Shown here piece by piece: positions 2,087 to 15,641 of a DNA stretch of 15,641 nt (position 1 is its first letter; every line of letters starts with the position of its first letter). Source of the stretch: a virus. The notes beneath the pieces were generated by a model. That model was not told where the DNA came from. It searched no databases and was given only the letters and a program-made list of their open reading frames with translations. The stretch covers positions 1-15,641 of IMG/VR virus record IMGVR_UViG_2912521645_000003; one strand, 5' to 3'. Made by a program: the position numbers and the translations under genes.

Positions 2087-2257
2087 TCGAGCGCAAAACA
2101 TTCGAGCGCATGCTACTCGAATACGAGTGCAAGCACCTGAATGCGGCTGCCTCGCCCTCGCCTGCTCTTGCCGACCACTTGTACTGCGTCAGCCTGCCGC
2201 CCGCCTACGTCAACACGGCACTCGGCTAGTTTCACGTGTTTCCCTGCTATTAAATCC

Positions 2258-2296
2258 GTATCGCCCGTCGCATTCTGAATCACGACGGCGCGATAC
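2258..2296. promoter_or_regulatory. Imperfect palindrome upstream of alpA (candidate operator)
   Basis: GTATCGCCCGTCG (2258-2270), 12-nt spacer, CGACGGCGCGATAC (2283-2296). The arms are reverse complements apart from one inserted base. It lies about 40 nt upstream of the alpA start. CGATAC recurs at 2327-2332. Confidence 0.25.
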
Positions 2297-2334
2297 TCGC
2301 CGGGCAGTGTCGCGCCATACTAGGAGCGATACTG

Positions 2335-2565
2335 ATGTCTCAACTCGCCAGCGCGCCACTCTCGAAAGCGCTCGTTTCGTTCGATTCCCTTCCCAATTCC
2401 GCACACGTTGATGTGCGGACTGTCGCCGGTCTCTATGGCTGCTCAGTGCCGACCGTCTGGCGTCGCGTTGCCTCCGGCCTCATCCCCGCTGCAAAGAAAT
2501 TCGGCCATTCGTCCCGCTGGAACGTCGGCGAACTCCGCACGAATCTGATGCCGGAGGCCGCATAA
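2335..2565 (+). CDS. alpA: AlpA-family (Phage_AlpA / excisionase-like MerR-fold) transcriptional regulator
   Basis: 76 aa. VRTVAGLYGCSVPTVWRRVASGLIPAAKKFGHSSRWNVGEL fits the AlpA pattern (HTH ... G-hydrophobic-P-x-P-x-K-x-G-x-x-x-R-W). SD AGGAG at 2322-2326. Confidence 0.85.
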   Translation: MSQLASAPLSKALVSFDSLPNSAHVDVRTVAGLYGCSVPTVWRRVASGLIPAAKKFGHSSRWNVGELRTNLMPEAA

Positions 2566-2566
2566 C

Positions 2567-2932
2567 ATGACGACGAAAAAAAAGGCCGACCAACAGGCCA
2601 GCCCGGACAAAGAGAATCTCAATTCGAACGCCAATGTTAACACGATGTTTTCGAAAAAGCCGCTCGGCAAAATCGATCGCGTGTTGTTCGAATTGCGTCG
2701 CGGGATCTCGTTGAATCGCTTCGACGCTGAGCGCCTGGGCGACCACTGCCTGAACACGACTATCTCGATTCTGCGCGCGGAGGGCTGGCTCATAACTGGC
2801 GAATGGGAAACTGTTCCGACCCGGTTCGGCAAAACGGCCCGCGTGCTCCGCTACCGCCTGACGGGATACCGCAACCCGGCAGAGGTCGCCGACGAAATCG
2901 CCGCGATCCTGGGCGAAGGGAGGACTGCATGA
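2567..2932 (+). CDS. Winged-helix DNA-binding protein, HTH_39-like
   Basis: 121 aa. LNRFDAERLGDHCLNTTISILRAEGWLITGEWETVPTRFGKTARVLRYRL matches the HTH_39-type pattern (target-like helix, x-R-I-x-x-L-R-x-x-G-x-x-I, then G-x-x-x-R-V-x-R-Y-x-L). SD GGAGG at 2553-2557. Starts 1 nt after the alpA stop. Confidence 0.75.
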   Translation: MTTKKKADQQASPDKENLNSNANVNTMFSKKPLGKIDRVLFELRRGISLNRFDAERLGDHCLNTTISILRAEGWLITGEWETVPTRFGKTARVLRYRLTGYRNPAEVADEIAAILGEGRTA

Positions 2933-2952
2933 TGCGTCCCTTCAAAAAAACC

Positions 2953-2982
2953 TTGCAGCCCGTAAACCGGCGCGCGTATACT
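2953..2982 (+). promoter_or_regulatory. Candidate sigma70 promoter TTGCAG-18-TATACT
   Basis: TTGCAG at 2953-2958 and TATACT at 2977-2982, in the 293-bp stretch between the 121-aa gene and the ATG at 3226. Confidence 0.3.
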
Positions 2983-3033
2983 TTTCGTGTGGCTGAGACA
3001 ACAGCCGCCGGGTTTGGCGACCTGAGATCTACA

Positions 3034-3063
3034 GGCGGACGACCGCCAAAGCGCGGTTTTTTT
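3034..3063 (+). terminator. Terminator-like element with two mutually exclusive hairpins followed by T7
   Basis: Hairpin A is GGCGG(3034-3038)-ACGA-CCGCC(3043-3047). Hairpin B is ACCGC(3042-3046)-CAAAGC-GCGGT(3053-3057), running directly into TTTTTTT (3057-3063). The stems are short (5 bp). Confidence 0.35.
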
Positions 3064-3225
3064 ACGTCCGCACGCCTCTGCGCGCACCTACGATCAATGG
3101 GTGGGCCGTGGCGGGGAGACGCTTGCGTCTGCCGGTTTCCTGTAGGCCGGTTCGCCAACCCTGTCACGTGCCCGCCCACCCCATTTGGCGATGGAAGGCG
3201 GGTTTCCTCACTACAGGAGGCCGCT

Positions 3226-3411
3226 ATGCGTGCTAACGCCCCTGCTCGTCCTGAGCAATCGCAACTTCCCCCGTCGTATTCCGAAATCATCAATCGCGCA
3301 CTGCGCGAAGCCGCACTCGCGCCCACCGTCTACGATGCGCTCGACATTTGCGGCGCCGTGATGGCGCAGCTCGCCGAACTCTGCCGTCAGGAGGAAGCGA
3401 GCCATGCGTGA
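3226..3411 (+). CDS. Hypothetical small protein (61 aa); alternative upstream start at 2929
   Basis: ATG at 3226 is preceded by AGGAGG (3215-3220) at 5-nt spacing. The same frame is open back to ATG 2929, which has GGGAGG at 2918-2923 and an ATGA overlap with the upstream stop. The 2929-3225 translation is R/G/P/C-rich and contains the hairpin/T7 element. Confidence 0.45.
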   Translation: MRANAPARPEQSQLPPSYSEIINRALREAALAPTVYDALDICGAVMAQLAELCRQEEASHA

Positions 3412-3598
3412 CGCCAACATGATTGAAGCCCTTCGCTACGCGCTGGCGAAGCAAGTACCCGACATGGAGCGCGGGTTCGTCATCCAAACGAACTATGGCG
3501 ATCTGGTGATCAACGCCGAGGACGCCGACCACTTCGCAGCACTGGCCCGAGTCATCCTCGGCGACAAGCTGGCCGCTGCGGAGGTGCGTCATGGTTGA
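3404..3598 (+). CDS. Hypothetical small protein (64 aa)
   Basis: ATG overlaps the upstream stop (ATGCGTGA). AGGAGG at 3389-3394. Confidence 0.65.
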   Translation: MRDANMIEALRYALAKQVPDMERGFVIQTNYGDLVINAEDADHFAALARVILGDKLAAAEVRHG

Positions 3599-3842
3599 CA
3601 CAATCAAGAGCCTTGACGATGCGCTTCGCGAAAGCATCGATGAGTCCAATATCGCAATCGAAGGATTCCAGCGAATCAGGGACTTGCTCAAAGTGATCGA
3701 GCATCTGGCAATCGCGAATGGAGTCGCCCATATCACGACCGTTGCCAAAGAAGCCTCTCTTATCGCGCTTGAATACGGCGACATTGCGAGTACAGGACGG
3801 GGAGCATTCGAAGCATCCCGCAAGGAGGTGCTTCATGGCTAA
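3591..3842 (+). CDS. Hypothetical small protein (83 aa)
   Basis: ATG overlaps the upstream stop (ATGGTTGA). GGAGG at 3580-3584, 6 nt from the ATG. Confidence 0.65.
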   Translation: MVDTIKSLDDALRESIDESNIAIEGFQRIRDLLKVIEHLAIANGVAHITTVAKEASLIALEYGDIASTGRGAFEASRKEVLHG

Positions 3843-4113
3843 CCTCCGATGCCGTCCGGGCGACTTGGCCCGCGTTATCCGCGCATGGAATCCGGCTCTT
3901 GTCGGCCGCATCGTCTTGGTCGGCACACTTCATTCGATCGGCGAGTCCGAATGGAATGTAACGCTACTCGGCGCTCCCGGCATGACGCTAACGAAGAACC
4001 GCAAGCGGCTCCGCATCGGCAATCGCATGCTCGCCCACGACTCGTATCTTGAGCCGCTACGCGGAGACGAACTACTCGGCCACGTCAACGAACGGGAGGC
4101 CAGCCATGCCTGA
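3835..4113 (+). CDS. Hypothetical protein (92 aa), prophage-type CRPGDLARV...GRIV motif
   Basis: Internal ATG at 3835 of the 3718..4113 ORF, chosen because AAGGAGG (3822-3828) lies 6 nt upstream and the start overlaps the upstream stop (ATGGCTAA). The N-terminal C-x-P-G-D-L-A-x-V...G-x-I-V pattern is common in small prophage proteins. Confidence 0.7.
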   Translation: MANLRCRPGDLARVIRAWNPALVGRIVLVGTLHSIGESEWNVTLLGAPGMTLTKNRKRLRIGNRMLAHDSYLEPLRGDELLGHVNEREASHA

Positions 4114-4342
4114 CCAGAAAATGCCCCGCCTCGAACGGGCTGTGCTGGAGGCGCGAGACAAATTCGCTCGTCTCGAAGCCCTGTTCCATGTGATCAAAGA
4201 GCGCTTGGAGGATGACTGTACCTACGAATGGCTGCTTGCCGACCTCGGCGCGGCTACGGCGGCTCAGTACGCAGTCGAAATGAATCAGATTGGCCAGCAG
4301 CATAGCGCTAAGCAGTCCTCACTAGGTATGGGAGGCGCATGA
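4106..4342 (+). CDS. Hypothetical small protein (78 aa)
   Basis: Internal ATG at 4106 of the 4049..4342 ORF. GGGAGG at 4094-4099, 6 nt upstream. Overlaps the upstream stop (ATGCCTGA). Confidence 0.65.
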   Translation: MPDQKMPRLERAVLEARDKFARLEALFHVIKERLEDDCTYEWLLADLGAATAAQYAVEMNQIGQQHSAKQSSLGMGGA

Positions 4343-4566
4343 GCATTTACGACCACGATCAGACCGTGTTGGAGGTTCAGAAGAGCGCCACGCAGCGGAT
4401 TCGAATCTCGCATCGCTGGTACAAGGGCCGGCGGTACGTCGACGTGCGCCTGATGGTTGTCGACCGGTCGGGCGAATTCGTGCCGACGCGGCAGGGAATC
4501 AGCATCCGCCTCAAGCTGCTCGCGCAGATCATTCAAGGTCTGACGCTGGCCGCACGGGAGGGCTGA
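4339..4566 (+). CDS. Possible PC4/p15-like ssDNA-binding protein (75 aa)
   Basis: RISHRWYKGRRYVDVRLMVVDRSGEFVPTRQGISIRLKLLAQIIQGL resembles the bacterial/phage PC4-like pattern (x-G-x-x-Y-V-D-I-R ... G-E-x-x-P-T-x-x-G-I-S-L). ATGA overlap with the upstream stop. GGGAGG at 4330-4335. Confidence 0.6.
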   Translation: MSIYDHDQTVLEVQKSATQRIRISHRWYKGRRYVDVRLMVVDRSGEFVPTRQGISIRLKLLAQIIQGLTLAAREG

Positions 4567-5114
4567 TGGCAAAGAAAGCGTGGTCCGATCCGCTCGGGCC
4601 GCACGTTCGAATCTATCACTCGCTGCTCAATACCCCAGCGTGGCGCGTTCTCGGCCCGTCTGCAGTGAAGTTGTACGTAGATATGCGAATGACGCTCAAC
4701 GGCTCGAACAACGGCAGCATCGGGGCTTCCCTGTCGCTGATGAAGCATAAGGGATGGACCGCCCCGACGACGCTCGCCAAGGCGCTGTACGAGCTGCGTG
4801 CGCTCGGTTTCATTGCCGTGACGATCGAAGGCGGCTTGCGGCAAGGTAGCCGCGTGCCGTCGCTCTACCGCTTCACGGACGTGGAAGTGTACGAGCAGCC
4901 GAAAACCGGCGTACAGGCGATAAAGGCTACTCACGACTACCGGGCTTTTGAGTCGGTACGTGAAGCCGAGCGAGCGCTCACCGAAGGATTGGAAAGACTT
5001 CGAACGGAGGGAAGGCAGAAGCAACAGAGCAGGAAAAAATCCCCTGTACAGAAACCGTACCCGTCCAATACAGAAACCGTACCCGAACCGCAGAATTTCC
5101 AGTACAGAAACTGA
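4566..5114 (+). CDS. Winged-helix protein, candidate iteron-binding replication initiator
   Basis: 182 aa. IYHSLLNTPAWRVLGPSAVKLYVDMRMTLNGSNNGSIGASLSLM...TTLAKALYELRALGFI is the pattern seen in small phage/plasmid replication-organiser N-termini. TGATG overlap with the upstream gene. GGGAGG at 4556-4561. The 3' end overlaps the iteron array. Confidence 0.7.
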   Translation: MAKKAWSDPLGPHVRIYHSLLNTPAWRVLGPSAVKLYVDMRMTLNGSNNGSIGASLSLMKHKGWTAPTTLAKALYELRALGFIAVTIEGGLRQGSRVPSLYRFTDVEVYEQPKTGVQAIKATHDYRAFESVREAERALTEGLERLRTEGRQKQQSRKKSPVQKPYPSNTETVPEPQNFQYRN

Positions 5115-5244
5115 ACAGGGAGACCCCTTTCCAGTACAGAAAACGAACAGGGAGCGAAAACGCCCGGAACGCCCGTTTCATAAGGGGTTTCGGGCGTTTT
5201 TTTATCATTTTTCGGCCTCGCAATCCCCTGTACAGAAAATGTAC
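5047..5244 (+). repeat. Iteron array plus AT-rich tract (candidate origin of replication)
   Basis: Core TACAGAAA occurs five times in direct orientation, starting at 5047, 5069, 5103, 5135 and 5231. Copies 1 and 2 are a perfect 17-mer (TACAGAAACCGTACCCG), 22 bp apart. Copies 3 and 4 share TTCCAGTACAGAAA..GAACAGGGAG, 32 bp apart. Copy 5 shares ATCCCCTGTACAGAAA with copy 1. TTTTTTTATCATTTTT (5197-5212) lies between copies 4 and 5. Confidence 0.6.
5168..5203 (+). terminator. Rho-independent terminator after the Rep-like gene
   Basis: AACGCCCG (5168-5175) and CGGGCGTT (5191-5198) are perfect reverse complements with a 15-nt loop. A T-run follows at 5197-5203. Confidence 0.55.
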
Positions 5245-5289
5245 TGCTTTATAGTATTGCCATACCTACGAGTTTTTCCGGAGCGTGCG

Positions 5290-5535
5290 ATGGATGCTAC
5301 GCGAATCATGTATCCCTGCATTTCATGCGGACGACAGTTCCAGTTCGGCCCACATCGTTACGATGGCAGGGTCGCGAAACTCTACGGCAATGCGCCAGTT
5401 TGCAACACGTGTTGGAACGCGAATTTCGACGGATGGGGTCCATCAGTCCAACCGAAGCTGCTCGCCGTGCTCAAGGAAATGGGACTTCCGGTACCTCCTC
5501 GTAACAAGAACGGCTGGCTTCCGCGCGGTGATTGA
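5290..5535 (+). CDS. Hypothetical zinc-ribbon protein (81 aa)
   Basis: Internal ATG at 5290 of the 4948..5535 ORF. Two CxxC pairs (CISCG and CNTCW). GGAG at 5279-5282. Candidate -10 TATAGT at 5250-5255, with iteron 5 lying over the -35 position. Confidence 0.6.
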   Translation: MDATRIMYPCISCGRQFQFGPHRYDGRVAKLYGNAPVCNTCWNANFDGWGPSVQPKLLAVLKEMGLPVPPRNKNGWLPRGD

Positions 5536-5578
5536 TCCCGCCTCTGAGTTATCCACAGGGGGTACAAAATCGGGGCGC

Positions 5579-5734
5579 AAAGGGTGCAAAAACGGCACCC
5601 TTTCGGGCGAAATTGGGACTGTTCCGGCGGAAATTGGGTCTGTTTGACCGGCACAAATACGCGTCAATCTCCCACAAACCCTTTGCCCGCAAGGCCGTGC
5701 GCGAAAGGGTGCAATCCAGCGCAAGGGAAAGGGT
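5579..5734. repeat. Repeat-dense intergenic control region (left half, split by the IS)
   Basis: AAAGGGTGCAA at 5579-5589 and 5703-5713. A third copy is split: 5727-5734 plus CAA at 7077-7079. Copy 1 sits in the palindrome AAGGGTGC-AAAAACG-GCACCCTT. GAAATTGGG[A/T]CTGTT direct repeats at 5609-5623 and 5630-5644 (21-bp period). Confidence 0.4.
5730..5734. repeat. Target-site duplication (left copy) GGGTG
   Basis: The 5 bp immediately outside the IS left terminus are identical to 7072-7076. Confidence 0.85.
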
Positions 5735-5766
5735 GTGGAGTTGACCCTGTAATCCCGGACACGGCG

Positions 5767-6654
5767 TCACACTAAAGTTGCTGAATCCATCGAGCGCCGG
5801 AACTCGCGGGGCGAGCGGTATTTCAGCGCGCTATGGGGATGCTTCTCGTTGTAATGCTCGAATGCGATGGCCAAGTTGTGTGCAGCAGTCGCCGCGTCCG
5901 GCTTCGGCATAAAGGCGACGTAATCGCGTTTCATGGTCTTCACGAAGCTCTCGGCCATGCCGTTACTTTGCGGGCTGCACACCGGCGTGGTCAATGGCTT
6001 CAGGCCAATGTCCATCGCAAACCGGCGTGTGTCGTCGGCTGTATAGCCTGAACCATTGTCGCTCAGCCACTCGATTTCGGACGGTGTATGCAGTTCGTCG
6101 CCAAACCGATTTTCCACTGCCGCCAGCATCACGTCGCGCACAATGTCGCCGCTGTGGCCCGCCGTCGTAGCAGCCCAGCTCATGGCCTCCCGGTCGCAGC
6201 AGTCCAGCGCGAACGTCACCCGCAGCGGTTCACCGTTGTCGCAGCGGAACTCGAAGCCGTCCGAACACCAACGCTGGTTGCTGCGCGCCACGGCCACCTT
6301 GCCATCGTGCCGACGTTGCGGCCGAGGCGGAGTCGGACGACGTTGCATCAGCAGACCATGCGTGCGCATGACGCGATAGATGCGCTTCGCATTGAACGGC
6401 ACCTGTCCGGCAGCAACACGTTCATTGCGCAACGTGCCCCAGACTCGGCGATAGCCATAGCTGGGCAATTCGCCGACGACTCGGCGGATTTCTTCGACCA
6501 CGCTCGCATCGTCGGTCTGCCGCGATTGACGGCCATCGCGCCACGTCGTCGGACGCGACAGTCGTGCCGATACGTTCGAGCGCGACACGCCGAGAACTTC
6601 ACAAACCAGTTTCACTGGTCGTCCTCCGGCAGCGAGGGCGAGTGCGCTATCCAT
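5767..6654 (-). CDS. IS3-family transposase OrfB (DDE integrase domain), IS2 InsD-like
   Basis: 295 aa. [37 protein letters not shown] and [18 protein letters not shown] match the IS2 InsD DDE region. Confidence 0.92.
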
Positions 6655-6977
6655 TTTTTTGCTCGGCCATACTCGACTGCTTCGCGGAGAATCTCGTTCT
6701 CCATGGTTTTCTTGCCGAGCATCCGCTGCAGCTCGCGAATCTGCTTGAGCGCATCGGCCAGCTCCGATGCCGGAACCACTTCCTCGCCAGCCTTGACCGC
6801 CGACAGGCTCCCGTCTTGGTACAGCTTGCGCCAGTGGAACAACTGATTCGGGTTCACGCCATGCTGGCGCGCGACCATCGAAACCGACTTCCCCGGCTCC
6901 AAGCTCTCCCGCACCATGGCCAGCTTCTGCTCCGCCGTCCAGCGCCGGCGACGCTCCGGGCCCGTCAACACTTCCAT
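6612..6977 (-). CDS. IS3-family transposase OrfA (HTH), IS2 InsC-like
   Basis: Start moved to ATG 6977, giving 121 aa beginning [22 protein letters not shown]. This parallels IS2 InsC (MIDVLGPEKRRRRTTQEK...). The track's longer form begins on GTG at 7007. Confidence 0.88.
6654..6660 (-). other. A7 programmed -1 ribosomal frameshift site of the IS (OrfA-OrfB fusion)
   Basis: The plus strand reads TTTTTTT at 6654-6660. On the coding strand this is GCA AAA AAA TGG in orfA, with orfB in the -1 frame starting at the overlapping ATG. This is the canonical IS3-family arrangement. Confidence 0.8.
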
Positions 6978-7071
6978 CACTTCCTGCCTGGTGTTAGTCA
7001 AAAACACAGTCTTATGCCTACCCGTTAGTTTAAGCGGGAGACCGTGTCCGGAGATTCAGGGGGCTGCTCCA

Positions 7072-7076
7072 GGGTG
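7072..7076. repeat. Target-site duplication (right copy) GGGTG
   Basis: Identical to 5730-5734, immediately outside the IS right terminus. Confidence 0.85.
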
Positions 7077-7109
7077 CAATATTCGACACCCTCCAAATCT
7101 CACCCCTCT

Positions 7110-7141
7110 CCCCCGGTAAGGCTCACTTATCCCCCCGGTAA
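7110..7141 (+). repeat. Direct repeat CCCCCGGTAA x2 (22-bp period)
   Basis: Copies at 7110-7119 and 7132-7141, in the right half of the split intergenic region upstream of the candidate packaging-operon promoter. Confidence 0.4.
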
Positions 7142-7201
7142 ATGCCGCCACGCGTCGCTGAAACGTTACGGTAACGATCCCCCTCCTCTCCGCCTCGCCT
7201 G

Positions 7202-7230
7202 TTGTAAACGTCCGCGATGTGGCAGATAAT
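7202..7230 (+). promoter_or_regulatory. Candidate sigma70 promoter TTGTAA-17-GATAAT for the packaging/head operon
   Basis: TTGTAA at 7202-7207 and GATAAT at 7225-7230, in a locally AT-rich patch (7225-7262) just upstream of the first ORF of the HNH-terS-terL cluster. Confidence 0.35.
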
Positions 7231-7259
7231 TGCCTGAAATCCATAATTCGAGCAATTAA

Positions 7260-7466
7260 ATGCAACCCAGAGACATGCCTCTGGCTGCTACTGCGCCTAA
7301 GTCCGAGCACTGCGCCATCGAGCAAATTGATGCGACTGTTGCGCACGCGCTGGCCGCGCGCGGCGAGTTGGAGCGAATCCTGTACCGCTGGGTCGGTGCG
7401 GGCACGATGCGCACACAACCGTCACGACGATTCCTGCCGCTGCCTCCGCCGAGGTCGATGCGATGA
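7260..7466 (+). CDS. Hypothetical small protein (68 aa; alternative start 7275)
   Basis: The ORF ends in an ATGA overlap with the HNH start, which suggests coupling. No convincing SD at either start. Confidence 0.35.
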   Translation: MQPRDMPLAATAPKSEHCAIEQIDATVAHALAARGELERILYRWVGAGTMRTQPSRRFLPLPPPRSMR

Positions 7467-7756
7467 GCGCACGTGTCCAACCGCGCACGCGCGGCAGCAA
7501 GTGGATGAAGGTCCGCGCCCGCATCCTTCGACGCGATCCGATCTGCGTGTTGTGTGCTGATCAGGACGTTGTGCGCGAGTCGGTTGTCGTGGACCACATC
7601 AAGCCGCTCGAGCATGGCGGCACCGACGCCGACGACAACCTCCGCGGGCTGTGTGCCGATCATCACGACCAGGTGACGCGACAGCAGTTCGGCCATCGGG
7701 AGCGGCGCAAGGCATTCGGGCCTGACGGCCTGCCGCTCGATGGCAGTTGGTCGTGA
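7463..7756 (+). CDS. HNH endonuclease (phage packaging-associated type)
   Basis: 97 aa. CVLC...VDHIKPLEHGGTDADDNLRGLCADHH is the HNH motif. It sits immediately upstream of terS/terL, as in HK97-like cos phages. Confidence 0.9.
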   Translation: MSARVQPRTRGSKWMKVRARILRRDPICVLCADQDVVRESVVVDHIKPLEHGGTDADDNLRGLCADHHDQVTRQQFGHRERRKAFGPDGLPLDGSWS

Positions 7757-7765
7757 CTTGCGACA

Positions 7766-7818
7766 GCAGCCGGGGGGCGGTCGATTTTCTGCGCTTCAAA
7801 AACCCGGAAACCGGCTGC
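7766..7818. promoter_or_regulatory. Inverted repeat in the HNH-terS spacer (candidate cos/terminase recognition region)
   Basis: GCAGCCGG (7766-7773, followed by GGGG) and CCGGCTGC (7811-7818, followed by CCCC) are perfect reverse complements. The small palindrome CCGGAAACCGG lies at 7804-7814. Confidence 0.25.
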
Positions 7819-7857
7819 CCCCTTCGCTTTCATAAACGTGGACAAAAAAGGTAAAAC

Positions 7858-8298
7858 ATGTCTCAACGCGGGCGGAAATCCGCCGCATCGATCGTAACGG
7901 CGCCAGCCGCGCCGATCGCGGCCGAACAGCGCCTTGCGCCGCCACTCCACCTGAGTGACGGCGAGCGCACGGTCTGGATGGAGGTCGTCAACGATCAACC
8001 GGCGAGCGCGTTCACGGCGACCCATGCGCCGCTGCTCGAAATGTACTGTCGTCACATCACGAACGCTCGCGTACTGGCCGAAGAGGTTTTGAATTTCGAA
8101 CGCGCATGGCTCGCAGACGACGATGGCCTGAAACGCTACGACCGGCTGCTCGCCATGTCTGAGCGCGAGAGTCGCGCGGCCTCGTCGCTCGCTACGCGAC
8201 TGCGCATCACGCGGCAGGCCGTCGAGCATCCGACGACGGTAGGCCGTTCGCTGTCGAATCAGAAAAAGGCAAGGAAGCCATGGGAACTCCCCGCGTAA
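7858..8298 (+). CDS. terS: Terminase small subunit, P27 family
   Basis: 146 aa. N-terminal GRKSAAS...AP..L, W..V and LLE.YC....ARVLAEEV... followed by a C-terminal basic tail, typical of P27-family (Terminase_4) TerS. Position between HNH and TerL. Confidence 0.85.
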   Translation: MSQRGRKSAASIVTAPAAPIAAEQRLAPPLHLSDGERTVWMEVVNDQPASAFTATHAPLLEMYCRHITNARVLAEEVLNFERAWLADDDGLKRYDRLLAMSERESRAASSLATRLRITRQAVEHPTTVGRSLSNQKKARKPWELPA

Positions 8299-9800
8299 AG
8301 CGCGTCTCCCGCGGCGAGCGCAACATCCGATGGATCGAAGAACACTGCCGCATCCCTGAAGGCCGGCTCGTCGGGCAGCCCGTCAAGCTCACGAAAGAGC
8401 AACGCGGCTGGATCAAGCAGATTTACGACACGCCGACGCGCACGTTCATCCTCTCAATGGCGCGCAAGAACGCCAAAACGGCCCTCTCAGCGTTCCTCGT
8501 GTTGCTTCACCTCGTCGGCCCGGAGGCGCGGCCGAACAGCCAGCTATACAGCGCAGCGCAATCCCGCGACCAGGCGGCCGTGCTGTTCGAACTCGCGGCG
8601 AAGGTTGTCCGCATGTCCGAGGATCTGTCGCAGTACGTCACCATCCGCGACACGGCGAAGGAGCTGCTGTGTCACGACCTCGGCACGATCTACAAGGCGC
8701 TGTCGGCCGACGCAGCGACCAAATTCGGCCTGAGCCCCGCACTCACGATCCATGACGAGCTCGGCCAGGTCAAAGGCCCACGCTCCCAACTGTACGAAGC
8801 ACTGGAAACGGCGAGCGCAGCGCAGGAAAGCCCGCTATCGATCGTCATCAGCACGCAGGCCCCTACCGATGGTGACCTGCTCAGCTTGCTCATCGACGAC
8901 GCGCTCAGCGGTGCCGATCCGCGTCTGAAGGTGGCGCTCTATACCGCGCCGCTCGACATGGATCCATTCGGCGATGAGGCGATCCGGCTGGCGAACCCGC
9001 ATTTCGACGCGTTCATGAATCGCGAGGAAGTGCGCCGCATGGCGTCCGATGCGAAGCGCCTGCCGAGCCGCGAATCGGCCTATCGCAACTTGGTTTTGAA
9101 TCAGCGCGTCGAAGCTCGCAATCCGTTTGTCGCGCGCGCAATCTGGATGGAGAACGGCGGCGAACCTGCCGAGCTGGACGGCGAGGACGTTTATGGCGGC
9201 CTCGATTTATCGAGCGTGAGTGACTTGACGGCGCTCGTTCTGCTGTCGGAGGCCGGCGACGTTCATCCGACATTCTGGCTACCGGCGGACGGTCTGGAAG
9301 CGAAGGCGCGCGCCGATCGCGTGCCTTACGACGTGTGGGCGCGTGGTGGCCTGCTTCAGACGACGCCCGGCAGCGCCATCGAATACGAATTCGTCGCCGA
9401 ATACTTGCGCGGCGTGTTCGACCGCTGCAACGTGCGCGCGCTCGCGTTCGACCGGTACAACATGCGATTCCTGAAACCGTGGCTTGAGCGGGTCGGCTTC
9501 ACGGATGAAGAGTTGAGCCGGTTCGTCGAATTCGGCCAGGGCTTCGTTTCCATGTCGCCAGCTATCCGCGAGCTAGAAGCGCGGCTGCTCGCGCGCAAGC
9601 TCCGACACGGCGGGCACCCCGTCTTGCAAATGTGTGCCGTGAACACGGTCGCCGTTTCCGATCCGGCGGGCAACCGCAAATTCACGAAACAGAAGTCAAC
9701 GGGCCGCATCGACGGCATGGTGGCTTTGGCGATGGCGGTCGGCGCCACGCAACAAAATGCGACGGAATCCGAAATCGAACCTCAAATGTTCTTCATTTAG
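8280..9800 (+). CDS. terL: Terminase large subunit (Terminase_1 / HK97-like)
   Basis: 506 aa. N-terminal IRWIEEHCRIPEG...GQPVKLTKEQRGWIKQIYD. Walker A-like ARKNAKT. Walker B LTIHDELG. C-terminal nuclease region including GRIDGMVALAMAV. Confidence 0.92.
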   Translation: MGTPRVKRVSRGERNIRWIEEHCRIPEGRLVGQPVKLTKEQRGWIKQIYDTPTRTFILSMARKNAKTALSAFLVLLHLVGPEARPNSQLYSAAQSRDQAAVLFELAAKVVRMSEDLSQYVTIRDTAKELLCHDLGTIYKALSADAATKFGLSPALTIHDELGQVKGPRSQLYEALETASAAQESPLSIVISTQAPTDGDLLSLLIDDALSGADPRLKVALYTAPLDMDPFGDEAIRLANPHFDAFMNREEVRRMASDAKRLPSRESAYRNLVLNQRVEARNPFVARAIWMENGGEPAELDGEDVYGGLDLSSVSDLTALVLLSEAGDVHPTFWLPADGLEAKARADRVPYDVWARGGLLQTTPGSAIEYEFVAEYLRGVFDRCNVRALAFDRYNMRFLKPWLERVGFTDEELSRFVEFGQGFVSMSPAIRELEARLLARKLRHGGHPVLQMCAVNTVAVSDPAGNRKFTKQKSTGRIDGMVALAMAVGATQQNATESEIEPQMFFI

Positions 9801-9802
9801 CC

Positions 9803-9830
9803 TTGACATTGGCACTTTATGCGTGATAAT
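9803..9830 (+). promoter_or_regulatory. Near-consensus sigma70 promoter TTGACA-16-GATAAT between terL and the protease-capsid gene
   Basis: TTGACA at 9803-9808 and GATAAT at 9825-9830, inside a 56-bp AT-rich spacer. No SD is evident before ATG 9857. Confidence 0.4.
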
Positions 9831-9856
9831 GACGACACTCACGCAATAAAACGCCA

Positions 9857-11749
9857 ATGAATCGACAAATTTCGAAATTTATCACCAAGCAAACCGCGAA
9901 GGCTTCGAATAAAGCGTTCTCGCGGTTCGAGGTGAAGAACCTCGACGACGGTTCGCGGGTGCTCAAGGGCATCGCCTCGACGCCGACGCCAGATCGCGTA
10001 GGCGATACCGTCGTTCCCGAAGGCATCCAGTTCAAGACGCCTTTCCCGCTGCTGTGGCAGCACGACCCGAGCAAGCCCATCGGCACCGTCAACAAAATGA
10101 CGATCACGGCAGCCGGTGCAGAGATTGAAGCAACGATCGCCCCGCCAGGCACCGCTGCGTACATCGACGAGGCATACAACCTCATCAAGGCCGGCCTAGT
10201 ACCGGGCCTGTCCATCGGATTCCGCCCTCTTGACGCCGTGTACGACAAGGCGACGGGCGGCTTTCTCATCAAATCCTGTGAGCTGTTCGAACTCAGCGCC
10301 GTGACGATCCCGGCAAACGCTGATGCGGCAGTTCAATCGATCAAGGCGCATGACAAATCCCGTGCGGGAGCGCCCGTCGTGCGTTTGAGTGCTCCCACCA
10401 TCAAGGAATCTGACATGACCATTGCTGAACGACTCAAGGCTCTCGCGAAAAAGCGAGCGGAACACATCGCACGCAAAAAGGCGCTGATGGACGGCGCGGA
10501 CGCAGACGGCGGCCGCACGCTGAACGAAGCCGAGTCGACGGAATACGACCAGCTCGACGCCGAGCTGAAGTCGCTCGCCGCCCACGAAACGCGCCTCAAG
10601 GAACAGCAATCGATCGAAGCCAAGTCGGCTGTCCCGGTCGCTGGCGGCCCGGCGGCACACTCGCCGGTCATCGTGAAGCCGAACGTCACCAAGGGCACTG
10701 CGTTCACGCGCTACGCGATCGCACTCGCGCGCTCGAAGGGCAACCTCATGCAAGCGGCAGAGATTGCGAAGCAATGGAAGGATTCAACGCCCGAAGTCGA
10801 AATCGTGCTCAAGGCGGCGGTCGCAGCAGGCACCACGACTGATCCGGCGTGGGCCGGGCCGCTCGTCCAGTATCAGGACATGGCGGCCGAGTTCATCGAG
10901 CTGCTGCGCCCGGCTACGATCGTCGGTCGCATCGAAGGTCTTCGTCGTGTGCCGTTCAATGTCCGCATCCCTGGCCAGGCGACGGGTTCGTCGGTCGGTT
11001 GGGTTGGCGAAGGCAAGCCCGCGCCCGTGTCGGCACTGGCGTTCAATACGACGACGCTAGGCTTCTCGAAGGTGGCAGGCATCGTCGCGATCACGGAAGA
11101 GCTTGCGCGCTTCTCGACGCCGAGCGCCGAAGGGGTCATCCAACAGGATCTCATTTCGACAATCAGCCAATTCCTCGACGGGCAATTCATCGACCCGTCT
11201 GTTGAAGCCGGCGCGAATGGCCTGTCGCCCGCGTCGATCACGAACGGCGTCAAGGCGATTCCGGCATCCGGCAAGGATGCGGAAGCCGTGCGCGCTGACG
11301 TGAAGAAAGTCTTCCAGGCGTTCATCAAGGCCAATCTGTCGGTCGCCGGCGCGGTCTGGATCATGTCGGAAACGACGGCCCTCTCGCTCTCGCTGATGCT
11401 GAACGTCATGGGCCAGCCGGAATTCCCGGGCCTGACCATGGCCGGCGGCACGTTCTTCGGCCTGCCCGCGATCCTCTCGCAGACGGTCGGCGACAACATC
11501 GTGCTCGCGAAGGCAAGCGAAATCCTGGTCGCTGACGACGGCGGTGTGACGCTCGACGTTAGCCGCGAAGCATCGCTGCAGATGGACAGCGCGCCCGTCG
11601 CAGGTGCTACGGAGCTTGTGTCGCTGTGGCAAAGCGGCTTCATCGCCATGAAGGCCGAGCGCTTCATCAACTGGAAGCGTCGCCGCGTCGAAGGCGTCCA
11701 GTACATTTCCGGCGCGGCCTACGGCGACGCGGCGACCGACGGCGCGTAA
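9857..11749 (+). CDS. HK97-family prohead serine protease (S78) fused in frame to HK97-family major capsid protein
   Basis: 630 aa. The N-terminal ~170 aa hold protease motifs (LKGIASTPTPDRVGDTV, LLWQHD, GLSIGF, ELFELSAVTIPAN). A coiled-coil, delta-domain-like segment follows (ERLKALAKKRAEHIARKKAL...LKEQQ). The C-terminal ~300 aa form a Phage_capsid-type region. An internal in-frame ATG at 10415 has AAGGA at 10403-10407. Confidence 0.9.
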   Translation: MNRQISKFITKQTAKASNKAFSRFEVKNLDDGSRVLKGIASTPTPDRVGDTVVPEGIQFKTPFPLLWQHDPSKPIGTVNKMTITAAGAEIEATIAPPGTAAYIDEAYNLIKAGLVPGLSIGFRPLDAVYDKATGGFLIKSCELFELSAVTIPANADAAVQSIKAHDKSRAGAPVVRLSAPTIKESDMTIAERLKALAKKRAEHIARKKALMDGADADGGRTLNEAESTEYDQLDAELKSLAAHETRLKEQQSIEAKSAVPVAGGPAAHSPVIVKPNVTKGTAFTRYAIALARSKGNLMQAAEIAKQWKDSTPEVEIVLKAAVAAGTTTDPAWAGPLVQYQDMAAEFIELLRPATIVGRIEGLRRVPFNVRIPGQATGSSVGWVGEGKPAPVSALAFNTTTLGFSKVAGIVAITEELARFSTPSAEGVIQQDLISTISQFLDGQFIDPSVEAGANGLSPASITNGVKAIPASGKDAEAVRADVKKVFQAFIKANLSVAGAVWIMSETTALSLSLMLNVMGQPEFPGLTMAGGTFFGLPAILSQTVGDNIVLAKASEILVADDGGVTLDVSREASLQMDSAPVAGATELVSLWQSGFIAMKAERFINWKRRRVEGVQYISGAAYGDAATDGA

Positions 11750-11761
11750 GCGGAGAACGTC

Positions 11762-11941
11762 ATGCAAACCTATGAGGTAGCCGTGGCCTTCCCCTATGCG
11801 GGGCGCACGCGGCACGTCGGCGAGCGAATCGAGATCAGTGACCCGAATCATGTCCGACTGCTGATCCTCCTCCGGAAGATCCGCGAGCCCGCATCGAAGC
11901 GTTCCACGTACAAGCGCCGCGACATGCGGCCGGAGGGCTGA
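11762..11941 (+). CDS. Hypothetical small protein (59 aa), below the ORF-track size cutoff
   Basis: Hand translation gives MQTYEVAVAFPYAGRTRHVGERIEISDPNHVRLLILLRKIREPASKRSTYKRRDMRPEG. GGAG at 11753-11756. The stop overlaps the portal start (TGATG). Confidence 0.5.
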   Translation: MQTYEVAVAFPYAGRTRHVGERIEISDPNHVRLLILLRKIREPASKRSTYKRRDMRPEG

Positions 11942-13230
11942 TGCGGCTCTTCTCGTGGATGCGGAAAGCCGCCCCGCCACTTCCGGTTGGCGGTGGCAGC
12001 TCGATTGCCGGCGTCGTGCGCGAACCGTTCGCGGGCGCGTGGCAGGCCAGTATGGGCGTTGATGGCCGCCACGACCTGCTCGCGTTCTCGGCCGTGTACG
12101 CGTGCGTGGATCGCATCGCCTCGGACATTTCGAAACTCGGCATCCGGTACGTGAAGCAGATCGGCAATATCTGGCAGGACGCCAGTGCGCCTCGCTTCAC
12201 GGGGCCGCTGCGCCGGCCGAATCCGTACCAGAATCGAATTCAGTTCGTGAAGGCATGGCAGGTGTCGAAGCTGCTCGCCGGCAACACCTATGTCCTGCTT
12301 GTTCGCGACATGCTGCGCAATGTGGTCGCAATGTACGTGCTCGACCCGACACGCGTTGTTCCGCTCGTCGCGCCCAGCGGTGCGGTGTTCTATCAGGTGG
12401 CCGCCGACCCGCTGCGCGGCCTGCCAGAGAAAGTCACGATTCCGGCGTCCGAGATCGTCCACGATCGCGGTATCTGCCCGTGGCATCCGCTCATTGGTGT
12501 ATCGCCGATCGTTGCGGCAGCCGCGGCCGGCACGATGGGAAACCGTATCCAGCAGAACAGCCGGAAGTTCTTCGGGAATATGTCGCGGCCTGGCGGCATC
12601 CTGTCCGCGCCCGGCAAGATCAGCGACGAAACCGCGAACCGGCTGAAGACCCATTGGGAAACGAACTACGGCGGCGAAAACGCCGGCCGTTTGGCTGTGG
12701 TGGGTGACGGGTTGAAGTACGAAACCGTCATGATGACCGCGACGGATGCTCAGCTCGTTGAACAACTGCGTTGGGCCGTTGAGGACGTCGCACGCTGCTA
12801 TCACGTCCCGCTCTACAAGATCGGTGCCGACCCGACCGGCTCCAAGACGGCGGCCAACATCGGCGCGCTCGAACAGTCGTACTACACCGATTGCCTGCAA
12901 GCCCCAATCGAAGAGCTCGAGCTCTGTCTCGATGACGGTTTCGAAGTCCCGGACGGTCAGGGGTTTGACGTTGATGTGCGCGGGCTGTTGCGCATGGATC
13001 CGGCCGCACGATATGACGCGCACTCAAAAGCCGTAGGCGGTGGCTGGATGGCCCCGAACGAGGCGCGCGCTGCCGAGAACATGGCGCCGGTTCCGGGCGG
13101 CGATACGCCCTACCTCCAACAGCAGAATTACTCGCTGCGTGCGCTCGCCGAGCGCGACAAGAGTCCGGCGCCGAGCAGTCCCATGACGGCCAGCATGCCT
13201 GAATCAACGGAACCGACGCATGGCAATTAA
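11941..13230 (+). CDS. Phage portal protein, HK97 family
   Basis: 429 aa. AVYACVDRIASDISKL, NPYQNRIQF...LLAGNTYVL, SPI........G......N.RKFFGN..RPGGIL and YHVPLYKIG fit the HK97-type portal family. Confidence 0.92.
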   Translation: MRLFSWMRKAAPPLPVGGGSSIAGVVREPFAGAWQASMGVDGRHDLLAFSAVYACVDRIASDISKLGIRYVKQIGNIWQDASAPRFTGPLRRPNPYQNRIQFVKAWQVSKLLAGNTYVLLVRDMLRNVVAMYVLDPTRVVPLVAPSGAVFYQVAADPLRGLPEKVTIPASEIVHDRGICPWHPLIGVSPIVAAAAAGTMGNRIQQNSRKFFGNMSRPGGILSAPGKISDETANRLKTHWETNYGGENAGRLAVVGDGLKYETVMMTATDAQLVEQLRWAVEDVARCYHVPLYKIGADPTGSKTAANIGALEQSYYTDCLQAPIEELELCLDDGFEVPDGQGFDVDVRGLLRMDPAARYDAHSKAVGGGWMAPNEARAAENMAPVPGGDTPYLQQQNYSLRALAERDKSPAPSSPMTASMPESTEPTHGN

Positions 13231-13537
13231 ACAACTCGTCTCATTCAATCGCGCACTTTCGCATCTGCGCGTAGAGGCTGGCGACGATGACGACGCGATC
13301 AAGGATCTGATCGACGCGGCCAGCGACATCGTCGTGGACTACCTGAAACTCAAGGCAATCCCCGAGACTTGGGCGCTCGAAGACGGCGACACTGCAAGCA
13401 CAGTCCCCGGAGCAGTACGCTCGGCCGTCCTACTCGTGCTCGGCACCCTATACGATGACCGCGAAGGCACGACCGACCCGCTCACACCAGCGGTCGAATC
13501 GCTGCTCATGCGCTTGCGCGATCCGGCGGTGGCTTGA
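13220..13537 (+). CDS. Head-tail connector/adaptor, gp6-like (Phage_connect_1)
   Basis: 105 aa. LSHLRVEAGDDDDAIKDLIDAASDIVVDYL is the characteristic gp6-like N-terminal motif. The start overlaps the portal 3' end. Confidence 0.85.
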   Translation: MAIKQLVSFNRALSHLRVEAGDDDDAIKDLIDAASDIVVDYLKLKAIPETWALEDGDTASTVPGAVRSAVLLVLGTLYDDREGTTDPLTPAVESLLMRLRDPAVA

Positions 13538-13571
13538 GGCTCAATCACAGAATGATCTGCGCTGACGCGTT

Positions 13572-13600
13572 TTGACGCAGCGCCGAATTGCGATTACACT
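13572..13600 (+). promoter_or_regulatory. Candidate tRNA promoter TTGACG-17-TACACT with GC-rich discriminator
   Basis: TTGACG at 13572-13577 and TACACT at 13595-13600, followed by CCGCGC and then tRNA base 1 at 13607. Confidence 0.45.
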
Positions 13601-13606
13601 CCGCGC

Positions 13607-13683
13607 CGCGGGGTGGAGCAGTCTGGCAGCTCGTCGGGCTCATAACCCGAAGGTCATAGGTTCAAATCCTATCCCCGCAACCA
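13607..13683 (+). tRNA. Initiator tRNA-fMet (anticodon CAT)
   Basis: 77 nt, folded by hand into a cloverleaf. Acceptor CGCGGGG/CCCCGCA with a C1xA72 mismatch. D arm GAGC/GCTC. Anticodon stem TCGGG/CCCGA carries the three consecutive G:C pairs. Anticodon CAT at 13641-13643. T arm ATAGG-TTCAAAT-CCTAT. Encoded CCA. Near-identical to the E. coli initiator tRNA as I remember it. Confidence 0.93.
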
Positions 13684-13690
13684 ACATTGA

Positions 13691-13721
13691 AGCCCGCTCT
13701 GCGAAAGCAAGCGGGCTTTTT
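13691..13721 (+). terminator. Rho-independent terminator of the tRNA gene
   Basis: AGCCCGCT (13691-13698) and AGCGGGCT (13710-13717) are perfect reverse complements with an 11-nt loop. The stem is followed by TTTTT. Confidence 0.75.
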
Positions 13722-13910
13722 GCATTCCGCGGTCGGAATGGGATCCCTCATCCTTGAATGGCGATGCCGAGCAGTTCAGAACGAGCTGGCATCGGATCGC
13801 CATGCAGCTGAATAGCTATTCGAGATCTCGCCGCGCGTCGGTCCGATGCCGTGAATCCCGCTCGCAGCACAATGCGAATGGCTGCCGAGAACAAACAGGC
13901 ATAGGTTTCA

Positions 13911-14144
13911 TTACTTCCAGTGAGCCTTTACAACGAGGCGCCACTTGATCGGGCCCGAGTTCGCAGGATGCGGGTGATGCGCCTGAGGAGGTAGCGTATT
14001 TCCGACGGTGGAAACTGCGCTGCCGCCGCATACCTCACATCGGTAGATCCCGGAATAAGGCGTCGAATCTCCCGGAGAGTGTAACAAATCGAACTCTGCC
14101 CCGAACTCCTGAGAGAGATAGTTGCCGTCTTTGTAATAAGCCAT
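13911..14144 (-). CDS. Hypothetical small Cys-containing protein (77 aa), third gene of the PanA-like operon
   Basis: Start moved to MAYYKDG (ATG at 14144), which has a GGGGAAGGGGA purine tract upstream. The track's 14186 start lacks an SD. Contains YSGIYRCEVCGG ... LPPQAHHPH ... GPIKW, with one CxxC and a His cluster. Confidence 0.55.
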   Translation of the reverse strand: MAYYKDGNYLSQEFGAEFDLLHSPGDSTPYSGIYRCEVCGGSAVSTVGNTLPPQAHHPHPANSGPIKWRLVVKAHWK

Positions 14145-14257
14145 TTTGGTCCCCTTCCCCATGAGTGGGGATACCAATCGTCGCATAGCTACTTATCTCA
14201 TAAATTGCGGTAAACCCTCGCGTGCGAATTTCTTGAATGACGCGCGGATGACTACCG

Positions 14258-14668
14258 TCAGATCGGTAAGCTGAGGATGCTTTTTGGCGTCTTAGACGAC
14301 TGCTGTAGACCTGCCTTGATCAATTGAAGTTGTTGTGCCGTGAAGTCCGGCAAATATCCGACATACAATCTGTTGTTGATATTAGCTTGAAGGTCTCTGA
14401 CAAAAATCTCTTGAGCCCGGGCGTAATAGATGTAACTGTCGTGTTGGATGAATGGGTGCGATCCAGCGTGGAATACGCACGTCGTGTCGTATGGAATTCC
14501 GGCGGGCGGCGTTGAGAAATTCACGACACATACACAGTCTTGGCTGCCCATGTTCGGAAAGGGCATCGGATCGTTCAAAATCACAAAAAGATGGCTGTGA
14601 TTCCCGGGGCCGCTCGGAGCCAAGAATGCTGCGCCGGCATGGATTGCCCAGCCGTTCGGTGTACTCAC
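14258..14668 (-). CDS. Hypothetical protein, candidate toxin partner of the Panacea-domain protein (family not recognised)
   Basis: 136 aa. The GTG start overlaps the upstream stop by 4 nt (GTGA at 14665-14668). The HLFVILNDP...CVCVVNFST...DTTCVFHAGSHPFIQHDSYIYYARA pattern loosely recalls MazF/PemK-CcdB SH3-like barrels. Low-GC codon usage. Confidence 0.7.
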   Translation of the reverse strand: MSTPNGWAIHAGAAFLAPSGPGNHSHLFVILNDPMPFPNMGSQDCVCVVNFSTPPAGIPYDTTCVFHAGSHPFIQHDSYIYYARAQEIFVRDLQANINNRLYVGYLPDFTAQQLQLIKAGLQQSSKTPKSILSLPI

Positions 14669-15240
14669 GCGGTTGTGAGCACCGCGTTTATTTGCGCGAT
14701 CTCGCCAAGGCGAAACATAATTTCCGCGATTGCGGAATCTGAATACTTCAGCTCTCTAAGCAGGCGCTTATGTGATACCTCGGTCGGATTGCCCTGCTTG
14801 TCAGTCCATTCATGACAGGACATATGGAGGTAGTCAGTCAACGCGTAATGATTGCGCTCACCGAACTTTTCCCATATGGAATCGAGTATCGAGATGTCGG
14901 CGCTGCTAAGTCTCGTCGAATGATCAAAATACTCTTCGGGAGTCTCAGACATTATCGGCCTACGAACCTCGACCTCGTGATTCGCAAGGTATGAGATACG
15001 ATCTTCCCAGCCAGCAACGTCACCAGCTAGACGCTGATATGTCGCGAATAGAACAGGAGATGTTTCGAAAACTTGCAGCTGGTCGCCAGTCAGCGGCTCT
15101 GCGTGTTGAGCAAACGACTCACGCTCTGCGAGATACAGAAGACGATTCAACTTCACCACATTCATTGGGGCACGAGCGCGGACGAGCAGATACATCGCGG
15201 CATCTACTGCCTTCCTCTCGTCGTACAGGTGCGGGAACAT
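14665..15240 (-). CDS. Panacea-domain (DUF4065, SocA/GepA/PanA-like) putative antitoxin
   Basis: 191 aa. VKLNRLLYLAERESFAQHAEPLTGDQLQVFETSPVLFATYQRL and LSSADISILDSIWEKFGERNHYALTDYLHMSCHEW match the two conserved halves of DUF4065 (KLxKLLYxA ... GPV ... Y, and yG..s...L...tH.e.pW). AGGAGG SD 4 nt upstream of the ATG. Confidence 0.75.
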   Translation of the reverse strand: MFPHLYDERKAVDAAMYLLVRARAPMNVVKLNRLLYLAERESFAQHAEPLTGDQLQVFETSPVLFATYQRLAGDVAGWEDRISYLANHEVEVRRPIMSETPEEYFDHSTRLSSADISILDSIWEKFGERNHYALTDYLHMSCHEWTDKQGNPTEVSHKRLLRELKYSDSAIAEIMFRLGEIAQINAVLTTA

Positions 15241-15267
15241 GGAACCTCCTAGCCGTCAATAGGCTTT

Positions 15268-15292
15268 GTTGTGAGCGTACCGAGGTCACAAC
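15268..15292. promoter_or_regulatory. Inverted repeat in the divergent PanA-like/PrtN intergenic region (candidate operator)
   Basis: GTTGTGA (15268-15274) and TCACAAC (15286-15292) are perfect reverse complements with an 11-nt spacer, about 30 nt upstream of the PanA-like start. Confidence 0.3.
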
Positions 15293-15380
15293 GCTCTGTC
15301 CATAGGGTTAACGGTCGCAGTCGCACAAAGTTGACATGCATGGCCAAAGTGATGCAACCCCAATTAATCAAAAAACACCT

Positions 15381-15641
15381 ATGAACACTGTTTTCCTGCT
15401 GATGGCGCAGTACGGAGCGACTGCCATCGTTCCGGTCGAGCTCGTCTGTCGTGACTACTTCTCGCATCTCACCGTGCCCCAGTTTGTTCGCAAGGTGAGC
15501 GCCGGCGACATTGCTATCCCGCTCGTTCGAATGGAAAGGTCACAGAAGGCTGCAAAGGGCGTCCACATTCAGGATCTGGCGAACTACATCGCCGAGCGTC
15601 GGGCAGCCGCGGTGAAGGAATACGCGCAATTGAACTCCTAA
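15381..15641 (+). CDS. prtN: PrtN-family (pyocin activator-like) DNA-binding regulator
   Basis: Start moved to ATG 15381. MNTVFLLMAQYGATAIVPVELVCRDYFSHLTVPQFVRKVSAGDIAIPLVRMERSQKAAKGVHIQDLANYI is a close match to the PrtN family consensus as I remember it. The gene ends at the window end with TAA. Confidence 0.85.
   Translation: MNTVFLLMAQYGATAIVPVELVCRDYFSHLTVPQFVRKVSAGDIAIPLVRMERSQKAAKGVHIQDLANYIAERRAAAVKEYAQLNS

Follow-up and report, generated by a model that had tools for sequence, protein, structure and literature searches.

A probable type II PanAT toxin-antitoxin operon of Burkholderia thailandensis, with a toxin of predicted MazF/PemK-like fold

Introduction

Toxin-antitoxin (TA) systems in which the antitoxin carries a Panacea domain were described by Kurata et al. 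2022 (PNAS 119:e2102212119; PMC8832971), whose survey of DUF4065 gene neighbourhoods gave the domain its present name, Panacea, and sorted the partner toxins into 88 clusters. In that survey, PanAT systems were recognized as gene pairs that lie ≤100 nucleotides (nt) apart and are kept together across species. One of the clusters, T6, holds a pair from Pseudomonas moraviensis (PanA WP_083354365.1, PanT WP_083201923.1), the toxin of which has no CDD hit and is similar by HHpred to the EndoA/PemK/MazF RNases (PMC8832971). This PanT is toxic in E. coli and is neutralized by its PanA, with which it co-purifies in a pull-down, and it selectively inhibits the incorporation of 35S-methionine (PMC8832971). 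Here we analyse a putative pair of this kind in IMG/VR virus record IMGVR_UViG_2912521645_000003 (positions 1 to 15,641; this whole stretch of 15,641 nt is referred to as the window), where three co-oriented genes encode proteins of 191, 136 and 77 amino acids (aa).

An original prediction, made from the letters alone, had proposed that these genes form a PanA-type TA or abortive-infection module with a new toxin and possibly a third component. We find that the locus is very probably a two-gene type II PanAT operon, located in Burkholderia thailandensis on a small patch that was gained by horizontal transfer. We observe the domain identity, fold, family membership, strict synteny and translational coupling on which this assignment draws. 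The class to which the system belongs has been described and validated by experiment before, and its published catalogue holds a near-identical orthologue.

Results

The first two genes form a translationally coupled panAT pair

Three co-oriented open reading frames (ORFs) occupy the minus strand at 13.9-15.24 kb, all exactly where the original prediction had placed them:

14665-15240, minus strand: panA, encoding the 191-aa antitoxin, with an ATG start and a Panacea match
15245-15250, minus strand: Shine-Dalgarno sequence AGGAGG of panA, 4 nt 5' of the ATG, from reading of the sequence
14258-14668, minus strand: panT, encoding the 136-aa toxin of cluster T6, of predicted MazF/PemK-like fold, with a GTG start
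13911-14144, minus strand: gene for the 77-aa CxxC...HHxH protein, phrog_15514

As had been noticed at first reading, they lie in a patch of lower GC content (0.485-0.55 over 13.8-15.6 kb, compared to 0.58-0.66 for most of the window), and the start of the second gene is coupled to the stop of the first: the GTG of panT shares the letters GTGA with the TGA stop of panA, a 4-nt overlap. The third gene starts 113 nt past the panT stop, after GGGGAAGGGGA, with a purine-rich ribosome-binding site of its own, also as predicted; the longest ORF at this position reaches 14186 (91 aa), and both NCBI and the homologues start at the 77-aa form. Each of the three proteins has an exact match in NCBI, in every case from Burkholderia thailandensis: WP_009903783.1 (191 aa, named 'Panacea domain-containing protein'), WP_009903785.1 (136 aa) and WP_080558122.1 (77 aa), the last two both named 'hypothetical protein'. 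Because there are exact NCBI entries and conserved homologues for each, we consider all three to be real genes rather than chance ORFs.

The 191-aa protein, which the original prediction had read as a DUF4065/Panacea protein, indeed gave a full-length match in a hidden Markov model search: it matches PF13274 SocA_Panacea (E = 3.4e-15; 57.4 bits, with a cut-off of 25.7) over profile positions 1-112 of 113, corresponding to PanA residues 31-145. The protein consists of a stand-alone Panacea domain and a C-terminal tail of ~45 aa, with no helix-turn-helix or further N-terminal domain, and it also matches phrog_1281 in PHROGs (E = 4.7e-16). Judged by its sequence, the product of this gene is a bona fide PanA.

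To follow the pair across genomes, we collected 30 loci, in about 19 distinct contexts, by looking up exact proteins and by a scan of genomes. In all 30, which come from at least eight genera, the gene immediately 5' of the toxin homologue, in the same orientation, encodes a PanA homologue, so that the neighbourhood survey proposed with the original prediction came out in favour of the pair. The two genes are separated by -4 to +25 nt, except at one locus (L034), where the apparent 163-nt overlap comes from an over-long upstream start set by the ORF caller. The hosts include Burkholderia, Paraburkholderia, Caballeronia, Janthinobacterium, Pseudomonas, Sphingomonas, Gallionellales and uncultured prophages, and the settings range from prophages to a megaplasmid (beside hipBA), a reverse-transcriptase locus and chromosomal islets. 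The toxin also occurs in nine sequenced temperate phages; the pair is present in both of the records that we examined (Klebsiella and Yersinia), and in the Klebsiella phage the gene upstream of the toxin is noted as DUF4065. With its 4-nt overlap and its presence at 30/30 loci, the pair conforms to the two-gene, cross-species definition of PanAT (≤100 nt).

The orthologous pair is catalogued in toxin cluster T6

The published catalogue contains a close relative of this pair. Dataset S1 of PMC8832971 has a row for B. catarinensis with PanA WP_128847277.1 (noNTD) and the partner WP_128847274.1, a 'hypothetical protein', assigned to cluster T6 with the order A|T and an overlap of -4. WP_128847277.1 is the representative of the cluster (90% identity) in which the window PanA falls. 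In B. catarinensis, the sole gene with a 4-nt overlap on the PanA stop encodes a protein of 136 aa (P0001) that is 96% identical to the window toxin. Since the B. catarinensis PanA is listed under T6 and shares the 90% cluster, and its partner is 96% identical, we place the 136-aa protein, by sequence, in T6, a cluster that has already been validated and in which the orthologous pair is already catalogued. The same Dataset S1 row gives the toxin orthologue a CDD hit to the 'Sema superfamily' (PMC8832971), which is almost certainly spurious given the MazF-like model described below and the lack of a Pfam match.

The window pair can also be connected to the validated T6 pair through P. fluorescens. 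P. moraviensis PanA has a ten-residue N-terminal extension, MIFSEQKVAQ (PMC8832971), and the PanA of a homologous P. fluorescens pair starts with (L/M)IFSEQKVAQ, exactly this extension. The P. fluorescens toxin is 37% identical to the window toxin (BLASTP, E = 2e-16), and the P. fluorescens PanA is 32% identical to the window PanA (E = 2e-22).

The toxin belongs to a large family and is predicted to adopt a MazF/PemK-like fold

The 136-aa protein has no matches in Pfam, NCBIfam or PADLOC, and its match in PHROGs is to a family of unknown function (phrog_19071, E = 9.7e-24). A word-indexed search returned only 12 relatives, in Burkholderia and Paraburkholderia; an exhaustive profile search returned 2057 representative clusters (clusters at 50% identity) at E ≤ 1e-3 and 506 at E ≤ 1e-10. 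Nearly all members of this family are 125-145 aa long. Among Burkholderia we noted shorter toxin copies of 121 aa (P0002) and 102 aa (P0011 and P0163), as well as one B. vietnamiensis assembly in which the accession of the PanA protein is followed at once by that of the 77-aa protein, with no toxin between them; these short or missing toxins may be decayed genes or annotation gaps.

We modelled the 136-aa protein with AlphaFold2 from an alignment of 122 sequences (predicted local distance difference test score, pLDDT, 96.3; predicted template modelling score, pTM, 0.91), which was used instead of an 11-sequence alignment that gave an unusable model (pLDDT 47.5). When this model was compared with the PDB by Foldseek, the 37 best matches were all MazF/EndoA/MoxT toxins, with a probability of ~1, E values from 3.5e-3 and target-normalised TM-scores of 0.53-0.65. 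These matches include MazF-mt1, -mt3, -mt6 and -mt9 of M. tuberculosis and the MazF proteins of B. subtilis, E. coli, S. aureus and B. cereus/anthracis; CcdB appears far down the ranking. Similarly, the best matches in the viral BFVD library are annotated 'PemK-like protein' and 'Endoribonuclease'. The model has an SH3-like beta-barrel of the CcdB/MazF type, and because the best matches in both the PDB and BFVD are MazF/PemK proteins, the predicted fold is MazF/PemK-like and not new. The original prediction had called this protein unrecognised, with a loose MazF/CcdB-like pattern. The structural impression agrees with the model and the Foldseek matches; the claim that the protein was unrecognised does not stand, as T6 was already catalogued, and the proposal of a new toxin with a new fold fails on both counts.

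The residues conserved in the toxin family do not obviously correspond to the catalytic residues of MazF. In the 122-member alignment, His26 is found in 122/122 sequences, His71 in 121/122, Asp61 in 120/122 and Ser78 in 117/122, followed by Tyr82 (114/122), Ser124 (113/122) and Cys64 (112/122). The window PanT is full-length and retains every family-invariant residue. Since His26, Asp61, His71, Ser78, Cys64 and Tyr82 are conserved and the MazF Arg/Thr dyad is not evident, the chemistry and the target may differ from those of MazF. The set His26/Asp61/Cys64/His71/Ser78 may form a two-histidine acid-base RNase site or a metal (Zn) site. We suggest, tentatively and as a view that is more likely wrong than right, that the T6 PanT proteins are MazF-fold enzymes in which these five residues replace the dyad and, separately, that the 77-aa protein represents a new small zinc-binding prophage family. 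If the dyad has been replaced, the cleavage chemistry or the RNA target of T6 PanT would be unlike that of canonical MazF.

Several results weigh against the assignment of this locus as a T6 PanAT operon with a MazF-like toxin. At the level of sequence, a Pfam scan of the 122 family members at E ≤ 1 gave no match (0/122) to PemK_toxin (PF02452) or any other Pfam family, and searches of PDB sequences with two PanT profiles returned no chain and no MazF match. An alignment by hhalign of PanT with a MazF profile (five sequences from a hand-entered MazF/Kid/ChpBK/EndoA alignment, with the E. coli MazF sequence checked against PDB 3nfc) was not significant (probability 1-4%, E of 0.01-0.05), although it was co-linear over the whole length; the protein does not join PF02452 by any significant sequence or profile match. 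In addition, the MazF Arg/Thr dyad (R29 and T52 in E. coli) is not evidently conserved in the PanT family: His26 falls at MazF H28, beside the catalytic R29, in the non-significant hhalign alignment, and conservation at family positions 52 and 53 is below 60%. Because that alignment is not significant, we claim no equivalence of catalytic residues. With respect to the catalogue, WP_128847274.1 and P0001 were equated by gene adjacency and not by accession match, and the experimental backing for T6 comes from the P. moraviensis pair rather than from this locus or any Burkholderia member. Finally, a promoter scan 5' of panA found no sigma-70-like site.

Alternative readings of the role and activity of the pair

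Among the alternatives, the one that survives best concerns the biological role and is compatible with a TA mechanism, namely that abortive infection against phages is the main task of the pair. Temperate phages and prophages carry it, and some copies have neighbours of a defence or TA type: the P. fluorescens pair (L009, 4123-5160) lies near a reverse transcriptase (RVT_1), the P. bannensis pair (L001, 163-1759) near two HEPN_Toprim_N genes, and the P. pallida megaplasmid pair (L002, 2574-4177) near hipBA. A sensory role for Panacea has also been hypothesised (Ernits et al. 2023). However, this neighbourhood evidence is anecdotal, PADLOC-DB v2 gave no match at E ≤ 1 for PanA or PanT (nor for the 77-aa and PrtN-like proteins), and we found no phage-defence test of T6 PanAT in the literature searched. 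We therefore regard a primarily anti-phage role as possible but doubtful. The proposal of a PanA-type TA module is upheld by the PF13274 match, the GTGA overlap, the synteny and the cataloguing under T6; the proposed defence role forms no part of that outcome.

It is a good deal less likely that there is no TA pair here at all, and that the two proteins have some non-toxic function as a pair conserved in phages or islands, or that this Burkholderia copy is inactive. Several PanT candidates were 'not toxic' in E. coli (Kurata et al. 2022, PMC8832971), and related Burkholderia carry the truncated toxins of 102-121 aa mentioned above. However, the window copy is full-length with all family-invariant residues kept, the two-gene synteny is strict and is accompanied by translational coupling, and a validated TA pair exists within the same cluster T6.

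The third gene was the basis for suggesting a three-component system, with the 77-aa CxxC/His protein acting as a regulator, chaperone or co-toxin of PanAT. The gene is co-oriented with the pair and lies a short distance downstream with its own Shine-Dalgarno sequence, and it adjoins PanAT in B. thailandensis, B. catarinensis and Burkholderia sp. BCC0397. However, we find this arrangement only in these close Burkholderia copies: none of the other PanAT loci that we examined (L001-L004, L009-L018 and L029-L037) has the gene. Moreover, its homologues are found where there is no Panacea gene, in Ralstonia solanacearum, in a B. gladioli prophage, where the gene lies between the replication and terminase modules, and in a Rhizobium phage-like element, where it stands alone and oppositely oriented between replication and protease/capsid genes. 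Between B. thailandensis and B. catarinensis, DNA identity is 96.6% for the 77-aa gene and 86.5% for panAT, which points to separate histories. Accessory third genes are also not general among PanAT systems (Kurata et al. 2022, PMC8832971). Synteny thus largely refutes the three-component reading, which we consider very improbable. Because it occurs without PanAT in other prophages, the 77-aa gene is not a third component and, judged by its distribution, is an unrelated, 'moron'-like prophage passenger outside the TA module.

The remaining alternative, that the 136-aa protein poisons gyrase in the manner of CcdB instead of inhibiting translation in the manner of MazF, is equally improbable: CcdB shares the fold and is among the lower Foldseek matches (E ~0.3, target-normalised TM-score 0.49-0.54), but the top matches are all MazF-type RNases and the validated T6 homologue inhibits protein and not DNA synthesis (PMC8832971).

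The 77-aa protein and the shared Burkholderia block

The 77-aa protein matches phrog_15514 in PHROGs (E = 4.6e-14) and belongs to a family for which there is no Pfam model. Its 61 homologues are 75-80 aa long and share an invariant SGIYRC-x2-C; H56 and H59 are near-invariant, within PLPPQNHHQH, and a further motif is IRWRL. A C2H2-type zinc site is plausible from this pattern of residues.

The block comprising the PrtN-like gene, panA, panT and the 77-aa gene is shared between the window (13750-15641) and B. catarinensis (L008, 3976-6103), where it lies near tRNA-Arg(CCT) and not tRNA-fMet. The unequal identities within this shared block suggest mosaic exchange. The PrtN/excisionase-like gene accompanies panAT in Burkholderia, with identical placement in B. 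catarinensis, and is divergent from the pair; NCBI calls an 86-aa form of it that starts at 15381:

15336-15641, plus strand: PrtN/excisionase-like gene, divergent (PF11112, E = 2.7e-29; phrog_1300 excisionase, E = 6.4e-31)

The operon lies beside an initiator tRNA and a separate phage-like element

The original prediction had placed the patch just downstream of a tRNA-fMet, and this position is confirmed by ARAGORN, by Rfam and by the hallmarks of an initiator tRNA, which are a C1xA72 mismatch and three G-C pairs (GGG/CCC) closing the anticodon stem. The tRNA gene and its terminator are as follows:

13607-13683, plus strand: initiator tRNA-Met(CAT) (ARAGORN; Rfam RF00005, 64 bits)
about 13691-13722: terminator hairpin of tRNA-Met, a terminator-like site

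The three-gene patch begins 228 nt downstream of this tRNA. There is no repeat of the tRNA 3' end (attachment site, att) in the 20-kb B. thailandensis locus, and neither an integrase nor an att repeat within 10 kb on the panAT side (3') of the tRNA. Insertion of an island at tRNA-fMet is plausible and, given the lack of an integrase or att repeat within that distance, unproven.

The part of the window to the left of the tRNA (1-13537) looks like a separate mobile element, which ends 70 nt before tRNA-fMet. It is phage-like and tail-less, no tail genes having been seen in this interval, and is reminiscent of a capsid-forming phage satellite (cf-PICI-like). Its features are:

1-1236: P4-type integrase (Arm-DNA-bind_3 and Phage_integrase)
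1243-1308, plus strand: int-alpA RNA, just after the integrase gene (RF02996, 57.8 bits, above the gathering score)
3093-3183, plus strand: C4 antisense RNA (RF01695, 68.6 bits, above the gathering score)
5767-7028, minus strand: IS3-family insertion (HTH_Tnp_1 ORF and rve/rve_3 transposase, 295 aa)
about 7463-7756: HNH gene
7858-8298: TerS gene
8280-9800: TerL gene
9857-11749: prohead protease-major capsid fusion gene
11941-13230: portal gene
13220-13537: gp6-like head-tail connector gene

C4 is an immunity RNA of the P1/P7 type, and the int-alpA and C4 RNAs fit a P4/satellite-like element. The IS3-family insertion splits the element between the early genes and the HNH/terminase module.

Discussion

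The mechanism that we propose for this operon follows that of the P. moraviensis T6 pair. Toxicity, neutralisation, complex formation and inhibition of translation were demonstrated by others on that homologue and would extend to the B. thailandensis pair by analogy. In this scheme, free PanT would stop growth through a specific block of protein synthesis, presumably as an RNase with mRNA or tRNA as its substrate, and PanA would neutralise the toxin by binding it in a direct protein-protein complex. RNA cleavage would be the most likely means of blocking translation, and the pair may serve in stabilisation of the element, in anti-phage abortive infection, or in both.

With respect to annotation, WP_009903785.1 and ~2000 related clusters that now carry the name 'hypothetical protein' could be named PanT (T6), MazF-fold, PanA-partnered. 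The biology is not unexpected, as MazF-like partners of Panacea antitoxins have been on record, with experimental validation, since 2022. The residual value of the locus lies in a large, unnamed and phage-borne family of toxins with a predicted MazF fold and in its unusual conserved His/Asp/Cys residues.

Among described systems, one comparison is with SocAB of Caulobacter crescentus, the founding DUF4065/Panacea antitoxin system. Its toxin, SocB, is unrelated and blocks the DnaN sliding clamp, and its antitoxin, SocA, is a ClpXP adaptor that does not act by simple sequestration. The antitoxin of both systems carries Panacea, and NCBI names some members of the window-PanA cluster 'SocA family protein', whereas the toxin at our locus is predicted to have the MazF fold. 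In the published catalogue SocAB is T10 (PMC8832971). Cluster T5 of the same catalogue is similar in being PanA-partnered, with no CDD hit and an HHpred match to EndoA/MazF of 99.5% (PMC8832971), but it is a separate sequence cluster and the orthologue of the window toxin is filed under T6.

The MazF/PemK/EndoA toxins (PF02452; MazEF, Kid/Kis) have the predicted fold in common with the 136-aa protein (Foldseek probability of ~1), together with a similar size, a beta-rich core, a C-terminal helix and a co-linear profile alignment, and the toxic phenotype of the PanT homologue is likewise an inhibition of translation. The 136-aa protein differs from them in that it has no significant sequence or profile match and has additional C-terminal helices, in that its antitoxin is Panacea and not of the MazE/AbrB type, and in that its His26, Asp61, Cys64, His71, Ser78 and Tyr82 do not obviously reproduce Arg29/Thr52.

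The closest described system is PanAT of P. moraviensis. The two differ in identity, which is only about 35%, in the overlap (-4 here versus -1 there) and in the Burkholderia host and tRNA-adjacent island setting of our locus. In both, a stand-alone PanA is encoded first and is followed by a toxin of 130-140 aa that overlaps the PanA stop; the toxin cluster is shared, through the B. catarinensis orthologue in Dataset S1; both window proteins are homologous to the P. fluorescens pair, which is near-identical to that of P. moraviensis; and the structure predicted for both toxins is MazF-like.

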